From IMG/VR virus record IMGVR_UViG_2718218452_000009: a stretch of DNA of 53,117 bases; one strand, given 5' to 3'. This document shows positions 6,001 to 12,000 of this stretch, one piece after another. Position 1 is the stretch's first letter; every line of letters begins with the position of its first letter. Made by a program: the position numbers. The DNA comes from a virus. Taxonomy: Duplodnaviria > Heunggongvirae > Uroviricota > Caudoviricetes.

Positions 6001-9000
6001 GCCAGACGGGCACACTGAATCATAGCTTTATGCCGTAACATCCGTTTAGGATGCGACTGCCACGGCCCCGTGATTTCTCTGCCTTCGCGGGTTTTGAATG
6101 GTTCGCGGCGGCATTCATCCATCCATTCGGTAACGCAGATCGGATGATTACGGTCCTTGCGGTAAATCCGGCATGTACAGGATTCATTGTCCTGCTCAAA
6201 GTCCATGCCATCAAACTGCTGGTTTTCATTGATGATGCGGGACCAGCCATCAACGCCCACCACCGGAACGATGCCGTTCTGCTTATCAGGGAAGGCGTAA
6301 ATTTCTTTCGTCCACGGATTAAGGCCGTACTGGTTGGCGACGATCAACAATGCGATGAACTGCGCATCGCTGGCATCGCCTTTAAATGCCGTCTGGCGAA
6401 GAGTGGTGATCAGTTCCTGTGGGTCGACAGAATCCATGCCGACACGTTCAGCCAGCTTCCCTGCCAGCGTTGCGAGTGCTGTACTCATCCGTTTTATACC
6501 TCTGAATCAATATCAACCTGGATGGTGAGCAATTGTTTCAACCATGTACCGGATGTGTTCTGCCATGCGCTCCTGAAACTCAACATCGTCATCAAACGCA
6601 CGGGTAATGGCTTTTTTGCTGGCCCCGTGGCGTTGCAAATGATCGATGCATAGCGATTCAAACAGGTGCTGGGGCAGGCCTTTTTCCATGTCGTCTGCCA
6701 GTTCTGCCTCTTTCTCTTCACGGGCTATCTGCTGGTAGTGACGCGCCCAGCTCTGAGCCTCAAGACGATCCTGAATGTAATAAGCGTTCATGGCCGAACT
6801 CCTGAAATAGCTGTGAAAATATCGCCCGCGAAATGCCAGGCTGATTAGGAAAACAGGAAAGGGGGGTAGTGAATGCTTTTGCCTGATCTCAGTTTCTGTA
6901 TTAATATCCATTTTTTATAAGCGTCGACGGCCTCACGAAACATCTTTTCATCGCCAATAAAAGTGGCGATAGTGAATTTAGTCTGGATAGCCATAATTGT
7001 TTGATCCATTTTTCGGGACTCCTGGCTGATTAAGTATGTCGATAAGGCGTTTCCATCCGTCACGTAATTTACGGGTAATTCGTTCAAGTAAAGATTCGGA
7101 AGGGCAGCCAGCAACAGGCCACCCTGCAATGGCATATTGCATGGTGTGCTCCTTATTTATACATAACGAAAAACGCCTCGAGTGAAGCGTTATTGGTATG
7201 CGGTAAAGCCGCACTCAGGCGGCCTTGATAGTCATATCATCTGAATCAAATATTCCTGATGTATCGATATCGGTAATTCTTATTCCTTCGCTACCATCCA
7301 TTGGAGGCCATCCTTCCTGACCATTTCCATCATTCCAGTCGAACTCACACACAACACCATATGCATTTAAGTCGCTTGAAATTGCTATAAGCAGAGCATG
7401 TTGCGCCAGCATGATTAATACAGCATTTAATACAGAGCCGTGTTTATTGAGTCGGTATTCAGAGTCTGACCAGAAATTATTAATCTGGTGAAGTTTTTCC
7501 TCTGTCATTACGTCATGGTCGATTTCAATTTCTATTGATGCTTTCCAGTCGTAATCAATGATGTATTTTTTGATGTTTGACATCTATTCATATCCTCATA
7601 GATAAAAAATCGCCCTCACACTGGAGGGCAAAGAAGATTTCCAATAATCAGAACAAGTCGGCTCCTGTTTAGTTACGAGCGACATTGCTCCGTGTATTCA
7701 CTCGTTGGAATGAATACACAGTGCAGTGTTTATTCTGTTATTTATGCCAAAAATAAAGGCCACTATCAGGCAGCTTTGTTGTTCTGTTAACCAAGTTCTC
7801 TGGCAATCATTGCCGTCGTTCGTATTGCCCATTTATCGACATATTTCCCATCCTCCATTACAGGAAACATTTCTTCAGGCTTAACCATGCATTCCGATTG
7901 CAGCTTGCATCCATTGCATCGTTTGAATTGTCCACACCATTGATTTGTATCAATAGTCGTAGTCATACGGATAGTCCTGGTATTGTTCCATCACATCCTG
8001 AGGATGCTCTTCGAACTCTTCAAATTCTTCTTCCATATCTCACCTCAAATAAGTGGTTTGTTGCCGAATTTCATTTTCTGGCGACCAACACAAGTCACAC
8101 CCATTTCACTGCGTGGCTTGCGGTAGTAAATACGGTTCTGTTTACGCTCGACTTCTTCTGCCTTCTGGCAGCGAAGGCTTCCGAGTGATATTGCTTTTTC
8201 AGAAAGGCTTAAACGTTTTCTCGGGGCTTCCTGAACAGGTTCCTCACTGTCTGTGCCGAAGATCGAATCGATGATGTTGCATATAGCATCACGCTCGATA
8301 GCCAGCTTTCTGCGCCGCTCATGACGGCGAGTTTTGGCATTTCCTGCAAATGTTGATTTCCCGTACACGATTACCGTCATGATGTTTTCCTCATGTGAAA
8401 TGGCTTTGGGGGTGATGTGCCAGATGCTGATCTTCTGGTTGCTGTCGTTGCAGCTGCAATTCACATCACCGCCAAATCCATCTCGTTTGGTATCTGTTTG
8501 CACTTTGTCAGCGCCCCATCGAAGTTAAAGAGCCTGCCAATCTGTTCCGTTTGGCTGCCAGCATCCTGCAGATGGCGATAATAATGAACTAATAGTTCGA
8601 TATTATCAAGAACTATAAGTACGAAATTTTGTAACTCATTAATTTTATTAGATAAGATTTTGATATGTAAGGGAATTTATTTTTGCAAAGATTGAAGATT
8701 GGTCTGTAGGGGAGAAAGGACTGTATTGCTGGCGTGTTAGTTCGTGGGTTAGCACATATGCGGATGTTAAATAGGGGAGGCGAACGTGAGGTAAAGAAAA
8801 CCCGGCGCAGAGGCCGGGTTTTTCTAGGCTACCAGAGAGTCAATCCAAGAGTCTCTGGTATGGAATGGCAACACTCGTGCGGTATCATTAAATAGTAGTG
8901 ATAGTTGCTGTAGCTCAGGTGTTAACCCATCGCTGTCAACTATTACAAATCTATTGTTTATGTCAGGAACGACCTGACTTAAGTCAACAATCTTCCCAAC

Positions 9001-12000
9001 TGTTGAGTGGGCAGTATTCCATCCTTTACTGCTGGCAAGGCTTACCGTAAACCCGCGTTTTGGTGGTATTAGTCGAGACTCATTCCTTAGCGTTAACGGA
9101 ACAGTAATGTTATGCCCACTAATACCTTTCACTTTTTCCTTTAAGGCTAGTCGCTTCCCAAGCCCTGCTGATTTTAAGTAACTGATTACACATTTTTCAA
9201 ACTTATCGTCTTTGACCTCAGCGTACCAATCAGCAGTTTGGGCGGATGCAAGAATCCCACCACGAATAACATTTGCAGTTACCTGTCCAACGGACGACTC
9301 ATCTGCCCACGCAGATATCTCTCCAGAGTCATTTAATGAAATTCCTTGCGAAGCGAGTGATGACCTGATCAGATCAATTTTCTTTTTAGTCAGGTGGATG
9401 CCGCGTGATTCAATATTCATCAATGTATCGCAGTAGTCTGTAACCCTATACTGACCACTCATCTCTTGAACGAATACGCTTATCTGCTCACAATCATCGT
9501 AGTATGTGAAGGGACTAATAACGCGCAGCAACGTGTCGCTCATTGGGTGGCATTCAAACCCGAGCTTAGATATGACTGTTGAACACGTTACATTTCCCAT
9601 GATAGCTGACCTGATTTATCTTGATTCGGTAAAGGTGGGCTGCCTTCATATATGATATTAAGCGCCTCGCAAAAATAATTCCAGTAGCCAAAAAAATCAT
9701 CTGGCTTGATGTTCGTTTCAAGCTTGAGTGCAATTTCTTCCCCAGCTGATTCGAAGTACATGTGATAGTGAGGACCTCGAGCCACCTCAACAAAATCTGG
9801 ATGGTGCACTATAGATTTATTACGGTGTGACTTGTTATGCGCAGGGTACGGGTCAAGCGCGTAAATGCGCCTGTCATGAAGAAACATCACAAATGAAAGC
9901 TTCACTATATCCACCCCTTCAACGATAGGAGAACGCCAGTGAAGCATAAATCTTATGCCTGTGATTGGGTTGCCAATTTCATCAAAAGCTTTGAGATCCA
10001 ATTTAAACCAGATTGGGGTTCGTCCCTCACTTCCGGTCCACGAAACTCCGCTAAAAGTTACTTTTTTCAAGCAAGTAATAGCTTGGTCAACCTCTTTCTG
10101 GGTAGGCTTAAAGTCGCCTTTTTTAGCCACTGATTCGTATCACCATGAAAGTTATTGTTAATACCTATGCTTCTTGTCACCCAAACGTCTCTTCAGGCCA
10201 TTGGTTACCAGCTATGTGACGATGAAGTCACGAACTTTTAATCCATTCCCTTGCCTCGATGTCATCTAGGTGGCGAGATTGCTTCAAAATACCAGCCACA
10301 TACTCCACCTTTGCTACTTGATGATAAGGCAACGTTATTGGCCTGTGGTCTTGATTGATGCTTGTAAATTGGTATTCTCCGTCTCTGTCATAGCCAAGAA
10401 CCTTGATCATGTTGTGCCCTTCAATGGTTCTGACAAACACTTCATCACCTGGGAATACTTTGGTGTTAGGCTCAATGAGTACATATTCTCCTGATTTAAT
10501 TCTGGGCCACATGCTGTCTCCTTTTACACGAAGACCAAAGGCATCTGGATCATCGCTATAAATCTTGAGCCACCCATCGCGCTCTTCGGTCATCTCGATG
10601 GCACCATCAACACCAAGAATTGCCTCACCAACCACGCGCACTAACCCTTTTTTTAATTTGCCAACAATTGAAAAAGTATCTTCATCATTCGCTCCATTTA
10701 ACGAAGTGCCGTGCTGAAGCCAAACAACATCAACGTTTAGAAATTTCGCAAGCGCATTCATTTTTTCCTGGCGTGGTAAAGACTCAGCATTAAACCATTT
10801 GCTAACGCCTTTGGACGAAAGAGAAAGGGCACGGGCTATGGCCATTCCCCTACCATGTTCATCAAGACCAGCTTCTTTACAGGCTTGCGCTAGCCGCTGG
10901 GCGAATTCTTTGCGCACTTTTTCATTCTGAACCATGAGTACGATACTAAAGCACTTGCAAAAACTTTCAGTTCAATCATAATGCGTACTGAAAGTACGAA
11001 AAAGGGTATTCCTATGCAAAATCTTGATGAGCCGATTAAAGGTGTCGGCATCCCTGAAGTTGCGAAGGCTTGTGGAGTTAGCGAAAGGGCTGTCTATAAG
11101 TGGCTCAAAAACGGCTTCCTCCCTAAGACTGAGTTTTTTGGGAAAACTAAATACGCATCAAAAATCGAAGAGATTTCTGGTGGCAAATATCAAGCAAGCG
11201 AAATGCTTGAAATAAGCAAAAAGAACCTTCTGGCTGCATAAGTAACACCGCTCTTTATCAATCTGCACCGCCGACAACGCGGTAACTAATTAAGCACTCA
11301 TCGAAAGATGAGTGTTAGTGATTATTTACCTATGGGAATAGTAAGAAATGACACAAACAAGTTACAGCAAACTATCACAGCGCGACGTTGATCGCGCAGA
11401 AACAGATTTACTCATCAACTTGTCAACGCTTACCCAGCGTGGTCTGGCAAAGATGATTGGCTGTCATGAATCGAAGATAAGCAGAACGGACTGGCGGTTT
11501 ATTGCTTCGGTCTTGTGTGCTTTCGGAATGGCATCAGACATCAGTCCGATTAGCAGGGCTTTTAAGTATGCGCTTGATGGAATCACAAAGAAAAAATCCC
11601 CGGTGGCCGCCGGGGACTCTAAGCAAATTGATATGCAATTCTGAGGGAATTACTGGATCAATCCACAGGGGTCATTATGACAAATACAGCAAAAATACTC
11701 AACTTCGGCAGAGGTAACTTTGCCGAACAGGAGCGTAATGTGGCAGATCTCGATGATGGTTACGCCAGACTATCAAATATGCTGCTTGAGGCTTATTCAG
11801 GCGCAGATCTGACCAAGCGACAGTTTAAAGTGCTGCTTGCCATTCTGCGTAAAACCTATGGGTGGAATAAACCAATGGACAGAATCACCGATTCTCAACT
11901 TAGCGAGATTACAAAGTTACCCGTCAAACGGTGCAATGAAGCCAAGTTAGAACTCGTCAGAATGAATATTATCAAGCAACAATGCGGCATGTTTGGACCA

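Follow-up and report, generated by a model that had tools for sequence, protein, structure and literature searches.

A two-gene cargo module of temperate-phage repressor operons in the rexAB slot, a candidate for anti-phage defence

What is encoded by the two genes that stand between the cI repressor gene and the next terminator in IMG/VR virus record IMGVR_UViG_2718218452_000009, at the position where lambda keeps rexA and rexB? The record is a 53,117-nucleotide (nt) stretch of Caudoviricetes DNA, which we refer to at its full length as the window. A preliminary description of the window, made from the sequence alone, had noted two co-oriented open reading frames (ORFs) downstream of cI and had proposed them as an uncharacterised immunity system expressed by the lysogen. 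The ORF table and the sequence bear out the coordinates of both: gene A (9588..10130, minus strand) begins with GTG and encodes 180 amino acids (aa), gene B (8824..9600, minus strand) begins with ATG and encodes 258 aa, and their reading frames share 13 nt. From the analyses described below, we conclude that A-B is an obligate two-protein cargo module of the lysogeny-repressor operons of temperate phages. Its family has already been catalogued as a defence candidate by two groups, and the window pair is a divergent, prophage-specialised member of that family.

The pair as cargo of repressor operons

Of 5426 complete E. coli genomes, 61 contain the intact pair, at one copy per genome and with 95-100% identity. 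A further 87 related loci came from scans with a B-family alignment: 80 viral contigs, plus seven loci in other genera (Pantoea, Providencia, Yersinia, Xenorhabdus, Izhakiella and Thorsellia). In every one of these 87, the gene immediately ahead of B is an A homologue, and the two genes overlap by 13 nt in 46 loci, by 4 nt in 40 and irregularly in one. The identities of A and of B to the window proteins co-vary (r = 0.99). When the window genes were compared with diverged alleles, dN/dS was ~0.06 for A and ~0.02 for B, values that are approximate given that dS is saturated. Both genes are under strong purifying selection, and this, together with the recurrence of the intact pair, places their reality as genes far beyond chance.

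The A family is small, with just 23 representatives at E <= 1e-3 among 1.8 billion proteins. For each of five distant members (20-29% identity), the next gene overlaps it and encodes a DUF1828 protein of 245-255 aa, and at this level of identity the pairing persists in phages of Pseudomonas and Burkholderia as well as on metagenomic contigs. For example, Pseudomonas phage VB_PaD_phPA-G contains an unannotated A-like ORF (L105:~2031-2504, upstream of CDS0029) with every A motif (RxxAxD, HxNK, HxH, YAEPL and a GQM tail), which overlaps a DUF1828 gene by 4 nt and has a CI-like repressor gene two genes upstream; in Burkholderia phage phi644-2 the pair is gp48/gp47. Nearer to the window, a variant pair (A ~40% and B ~51% identical) is carried by Escherichia phages ev207, ev017, PhiR63_2 and PhiR57_1 and by a Stx1a phage. 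Searched as DNA, the cassette gave zero blastn matches in the phage collection; the homologues surfaced at the protein level. In a prophage of E. coli C7 (L001:10783-13307), the cassette and its flanks are identical to the window. That prophage has IS3-family insertions after ren and within ninB, and its copy is probably defective.

Grouped by sequence, the genes that precede A at the 87 loci form 17 clusters. Twelve of these (76 loci) are repressors that combine a helix-turn-helix (HTH) with an S24 domain, two are HTH-only repressors, and in two more (8 loci) the gene encodes a 113-aa DUF3024 protein and has a cI-like gene before it; in one locus cI lies 650 nt upstream. The repressors beside the pair represent at least 14 families, and a single allele group of A-B occurs with several of them. 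An intrinsic terminator follows within 21 nt of the B stop codon in 86 of the 87 loci. The recurring unit is thereby a repressor gene, sometimes one extra gene, A, B and a terminator, so that the occurrence of the pair downstream of repressors in other prophages, which the preliminary description had left to a survey, is found throughout. This strict link between the pair and repressor operons, over many repressor families and several host genera, is new in this analysis. It shows that temperate phages generally use the gap between cI and its terminator for cargo, knowledge that should aid the mining of prophages for lysogen-expressed functions.

The extra gene is itself of interest for defence, as the DUF3024 gene between cI and A (L018:3052-3393, L022 and six other loci) matches the single-gene PADLOC candidate PDC-S43 (E = 5.7e-37). 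This candidate therefore shares an operon with A-B in 8 of 87 loci. The immunity regions of some relatives have sieB neighbours, and no known defence gene stands next to the pair in the window.

To place the cassette relative to rexA-rexB, we compared pair-carrying prophages with lambda. The prophages of O104:H4, O103:H2 and LST200A have flanks in common with lambda, and in these lambda-immunity prophages the homology ends at the cI stop codon (lambda 37227) and restarts at the rexB stop codon (~lambda 35831), from where it continues through the terminator to OL/pL. The A-B block between these points measures 1351 bp, and the rexA-rexB block at the same slot 1395 bp. Breaks at precisely these two stop codons identify A-B as an exact allelic replacement of rexA-rexB, a second result that is new here and that places the assignment of the pair to the rexAB slot in the preliminary description on firm ground. 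The window retains the left edge of this arrangement, with 50 nt (8776-8825) that are 90% identical to lambda 35782-35831 by blastn. The terminator after B is the element that follows rexB in lambda. It is an intrinsic terminator (8793..8823, minus strand; fold -21.4 kcal/mol, z = -3.0) in which the hairpin CCCGGC-CTCTGC-GCCGGG, directly after the B stop codon, is followed by TTTTCTTT; it ends the cI-A-B operon ahead of N, in agreement with the hairpin noted earlier.

The right edge records where the cassette came from. The first gene of the operon is a cI-type lysogeny repressor gene (10228..10935, minus strand; 235 aa) with HTH_3 (E = 1.2e-5) and Peptidase_S24 (E = 3.5e-16) domains, and the window repressor and cro are 97.5% identical to their counterparts in 933W-type phages. 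Between the stop codon of this 933W-type cI (10228) and the start of A lies a 27-nt remnant (10177..10203, minus strand), recovered by blastn, alignment and direct reading, which is 92.6% identical to lambda 37227-37253. It encodes ...QWPEETFG* and reads as the last codons of lambda cI. The remnant is followed by a 46-nt leader (10131..10176, minus strand) that runs from the former lambda cI stop codon to the start of A and is conserved along with the cassette. In the leader, GGTGA precedes the GTG start codon by 9 nt, and the leader is near-invariant across four prophages that represent three repressor proteins and two junction types.

A piece of lambda cI beside a 933W-type cI places the origin of the cassette in a lambda-immunity context, and this lambda cI fossil in a 933W-immunity phage is likewise new in this analysis. 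It shows that recombination inside cI brought the cassette in from a phage with lambda immunity. In sister phages with the same 933W-type cI, the slot is occupied by another gene of 299 aa (Escherichia virus Lambda_2E9, L015:1624-2523), which has zero PADLOC matches and a match to DUF1206 at sub-threshold level only. The presence of a different gene in these sister phages identifies the slot as a variable cargo site.

Together, the position in the operon, the terminator after B and the absence of a leftward terminator between cI and A in a scan of the window argue strongly for co-transcription of cI, A and B. By analogy with rexAB in lambda, A-B are most likely transcribed with cI from the maintenance promoter in the lysogen. 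Slot, cI junction and terminator are identical to those of lambda rexA-rexB; both are pairs of genes that are co-oriented with cI, rexA-rexB is (and A-B would be) co-transcribed with it in the lysogen, and both are accessory to phage growth. In contrast, the products are unrelated. The preliminary description had judged the proteins unlike RexA and RexB, and we detected no sequence or profile similarity, with hhalign probabilities of 0.1-0.6%. Its statement that they are devoid of transmembrane segments also holds, since maximal 19-residue Kyte-Doolittle hydropathy reaches 1.22 in A and 0.79 in B, as opposed to 2.39 in lambda RexB. As RexB is a polytopic membrane protein and A-B includes no membrane protein, a Rex-like mechanism of membrane depolarisation is excluded.

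Protein domains and defence catalogues

In protein B, residues 30-112 match Pfam DUF1828 (E = 2.6e-10). An AlphaFold2 model of B (predicted local distance difference test score, 78.7) predicts a type III secretion chaperone/YbjN-like fold for this domain, and for residues 133-245 an alpha-beta-beta-beta-alpha-beta-alpha-beta arrangement that agrees with a PD-(D/E)xK core. Foldseek searches of viral models relate full-length B to a phage DUF1828 protein and its C-terminal domain to small phage endonucleases. The C-terminal domain of window B gave no Pfam DUF1829 match at E <= 1, and the link to that family runs via phi644-2 gp47, which scores for DUF1828 and additionally for DUF1829 (residues 163-240), so that the C-terminal domain of B corresponds to DUF1829.

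An alignment that includes distant members identifies C6, G14, C17, P30, D36, D55, G93, E94, V138, G159, S161, G162, D206 and D222 as invariant residues of B, and K181 and H163 as variable. No conserved acidic or lysine residue occupies the canonical D...(D/E)xK positions of B, and no acidic residue is found at the start of beta-2. In its model, B has a nuclease fold, but the usual active site is missing.

Protein A is matched more weakly. Its residues 100-160 match Pfam DUF6978 with E = 2.7e-4 and 21.7 bits, compared with a cutoff of 29.6 bits, and the PADLOC model PDC-M24A, over these residues only, with E = 1.5e-3. Among 17 A-family members, five match DUF6978, and three PDC-M24A models are matched by three, two and two members, respectively. 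Residues conserved across distant members are K22, W31, R88, D93, N104 (usually with H102 before it), G119-x-H121-x-H123, F153 and P168. The His-rich patch that the preliminary description had pointed out in the first protein corresponds to residues 109-127. HIT-like, cupin-like, LAS/M23-like and HNH-like readings of the His motifs were considered and rejected as unsupported, as the conserved spacing fits none of them. NCBIfam gave zero matches for A or B, and a search of the PDB sequences with close and diverse profiles of both proteins returned nothing meaningful, only a designed Kelch repeat and His-tags.

Two further features of the alignments bear on how A and B could act together. The C-terminal tail of A reads SGQLSWEM in Enterobacterales and GQxxLL elsewhere. 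Only four codons of A overlap B, which indicates that the constraint on the tail acts on the protein; the tail may serve as a docking peptide or a degron. The last ~16 residues, PPLPNQDxSGQLSWEM (window 9588-9635, minus strand), are almost invariant in Enterobacterales. In addition, H121 and H123 of A (window 9762-9770) and C6 and C17 of B (window 9550-9585) are invariant family-wide, the most distant members included, and it is conceivable from this pattern that the Cys pair of B and the His pair of A form a shared metal site.

We next consider these proteins in light of the existing defence catalogues. Window B matches the PADLOC PDC-M24B models with E = 6.3e-7 and 7e-7, and 11 of 11 diverse B-family members match PDC-M24B, with a best E of 7.2e-22. 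As B hits PDC-M24B and A hits PDC-M24A weakly but specifically, the pair matches the two halves of one PADLOC candidate. PDC-M24 is the cassette FAM_00129>>FAM_00065, which was seen 153 times (Payne et al., bioRxiv 10.1101/2024.01.29.577857) and is one of 145 candidates that trace back to genes lying within Hachiman, BREX, DISARM and type I restriction-modification (RM) loci (bioRxiv 10.1101/2024.01.29.577857). The order of the window pair, a small A and then B in the same orientation, is that of the PDC-M24 cassette. Independently, DefensePredictor lists a homologous ECOR pair as 'Predicted novel defense gene' (PMC13092281). Its A-like member, WP_001062368.1 (185 aa), has log-odds of 4.9-5.4 and belongs to a cluster named after WP_001074607.1 (PMC13092281), the allele of A in the O104:H4 prophage; its B-like member, WP_000968518.1, is a 250-aa DUF1828 protein with log-odds of 5.6 (PMC13092281). 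The view of the preliminary description that neither protein matched a described defence family is consequently superseded. Of its proposal of an uncharacterised lysogen-expressed immunity system, defence survives as the best reading and the operon structure is consistent with expression in the lysogen, but the system is an already catalogued candidate.

The likeness to PDC-M24 extends to the two adjacent, co-oriented genes with a small A followed by a B of ~250 aa, to the weak match of A to PDC-M24A/DUF6978 over its C-terminal, His-motif half, and to the presence of both DUF1828 and DUF1829 in relatives of the window pair. However, A of the window branch has ~30 aa more and falls short of curated thresholds, and this branch is confined to temperate-phage repressor operons instead of being embedded in RM, BREX and Hachiman loci. 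Other systems share less with the pair. In the validated system HipAD (DS-6), DS-6B combines DUF3037 with DUF1829 and was modelled as the partner- and DNA-binding component (PMC13092281). A DUF1829-type domain thus occurs in the non-kinase partner, at the position of the C-terminal endonuclease-fold domain of B, but A-B has no HipA kinase and A is unrelated to the HipAD partner. BstA- and SieB-type genes resemble A-B as prophage genes beside the immunity region that are expressed in the lysogen (as A-B would be), whereas they are single-gene systems with other folds, and neither A nor B has a PADLOC match to BstA or SieB. The PD-(D/E)xK effectors Can2/Card1, Shedu and HamA differ in that B conserves GxSG, D206 and D222 and not the canonical acidic and lysine positions, and in that their N-terminal sensor domain is unlike that of B.

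Candidate functions of the pair

On balance, we lean towards the view that A-B is an anti-phage module of the PDC-M24 type, made up of two proteins and expressed in the lysogen, which takes the place of rexAB and would protect the lysogen against other phages. This reading draws on the position of the pair and its obligate coupling, on the two computational predictions made independently, on the defence candidates nearby, and on a patchy, accessory distribution combined with strong purifying selection. Several observations weigh against it. The matches of A to PDC-M24A and DUF6978 lie below curated thresholds, and co-transcription with cI is argued from the example of lambda. In the alignment, B has no invariant residues at the canonical PD-(D/E)xK positions, so effector activity of either protein stays a proposal. 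PDC-M24 is one of 145 candidates known from computational screening, other such candidates failed on testing, and the ECOR pair is missing from the DefensePredictor table of tested units (PMC13092281). A literature search with DUF1828, DUF6978, PDC-M24 and the RefSeq accessions found no experimental work, although its coverage of subscription journals was incomplete and a published test is possible.

How would such a module work? We tentatively suggest that translational coupling through the 13- or 4-nt overlaps leads to a cytoplasmic complex of A and B, in which B would be the sensor or scaffold. The DUF1828 domain of B could hold an extended peptide, be it the C-terminal tail of A, the disordered His segment of A or a phage protein, and its endonuclease-fold domain, with no canonical triad, might bind nucleic acid. 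A has the only enzyme-like set of invariant polar residues in the pair (R, D, HxN and GxHxH), which suggests a metal-dependent effector. A may accordingly be imagined as an enzyme with an HxN + GxHxH site that is released or activated on infection.

A related but rather unlikely possibility is that the pair is a mechanistically new cytoplasmic immunity system that is kept in the repressor operons of Enterobacterales, Pseudomonas and Burkholderia phages. Here a phage protein, unfolded or freshly synthesised, would be captured by DUF1828, and this would switch on A, a small His-motif enzyme of a fold unseen in defence; the degenerate endonuclease domain would be a nucleic-acid anchor, and the Cys pair of B and His pair of A might share a metal site. 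Two overlapping, translationally coupled genes would also suit a toxin-antitoxin (TA)-like module for addiction or maintenance, or one that modulates the lysis-lysogeny switch, as reported for RexA; either would serve the prophage itself and not the exclusion of other phages. Distant copies of the pair do adjoin TacA/TacT and HicA-like genes, the pair exactly replaces rexAB, whose products are reported to aid the transition from lysogeny to the lytic cycle (bioRxiv 10.1101/2021.04.19.439022), and a DUF1829 protein was proposed as the antitoxin-like partner in HipAD (PMC13092281). We nevertheless regard this role as unlikely, given that Pfam and NCBIfam reveal no known toxin or antitoxin domain in A or B (only DUF1828 and DUF6978), that both proteins exceed the typical size of type II TA components, that there is no similarity to RexA, and that PDC-M24 relatives lie inside RM, BREX and Hachiman loci, away from prophage switches. 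TA and defence functions can, moreover, coexist.

The location of the pair in a lysogeny operon, its presence in prophages of E. coli pathogens, O104:H4 and O103:H2 among them, and a YbjN/DUF2170-type fold that is found in stress and biofilm regulators would all be expected of a lysogenic-conversion moron, with a role in host fitness (stress tolerance, metabolism or virulence) unrelated to phages. This appears quite unlikely, as both independent defence predictors favour defence, the slot also carries rexAB and, in some loci, the defence candidate PDC-S43, and the distribution tracks temperate phages of many hosts and not a pathotype. The nuclease-like fold of B could, finally, hint at a core lytic function in replication, recombination or as a nuclease. 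We consider that highly improbable for a pair that is found in only ~1% of E. coli genomes, that most lambdoid phages carrying the same cI do without, that swaps with rexAB (itself dispensable for growth), that lies within the repressor operon and ends at a terminator ahead of pL, and in which the canonical nuclease residues are missing from B.

If the pair does act as an anti-phage module of the PDC-M24 type, one of the 145 guilt-by-embedding candidates would be validated, DUF1829 would gain a second validated defence context besides DS-6/HipAD, and DUF1828 and DUF6978-like domains would have their first defence role. Such a result would come as no surprise to specialists, who already treat the region as a defence site. 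The exact replacement of rexAB in lambda-immunity prophages of E. coli means that lambda genetics can be used to dissect the pair, and the locus therefore offers a tractable route to PDC-M24 in lambda.

Other features of the immunity region

Leftward of the operon, the slot is bordered by the next transcription unit, the N antiterminator gene expressed from pL (8045..8380, minus strand; limits from the Pfam N_peptide match and the RefSeq coding sequence). A longer ORF with a GTG start (8045-8503, minus strand) was rejected as N and is an ORF-calling artefact: the N_peptide match (E = 9e-26) covers residues 42-117 of this long ORF, and the N peptide domain begins at M42. The window N has a P22-type arginine-rich motif. 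On the other side, a cro-like repressor gene of the 933W type (10981..11241, plus strand), named HTH regulator or Cro of BP-933W in matching records, diverges from cI. A search of the window for repeats revealed no shared OL/OR operators.

A promoter-like site inside B (9200..9171) was taken as a chance occurrence, as the scan gave 8 sites where 5.7 were expected. The cI stop codon is covered by a hairpin (10215-10232, plus strand) that has a T-rich tail on the plus strand only; this hairpin resembles a terminator of antisense transcripts that run rightward into cI, and not one of the cI-A-B transcript. The preliminary description had also called the cassette AT-richer than the phage core. Its GC content (43-44%) is indeed below that of the replication genes (52-55%), but it equals that of cI, cro and N, so that low GC is a property of the whole immunity region and not a signal specific to the cassette.

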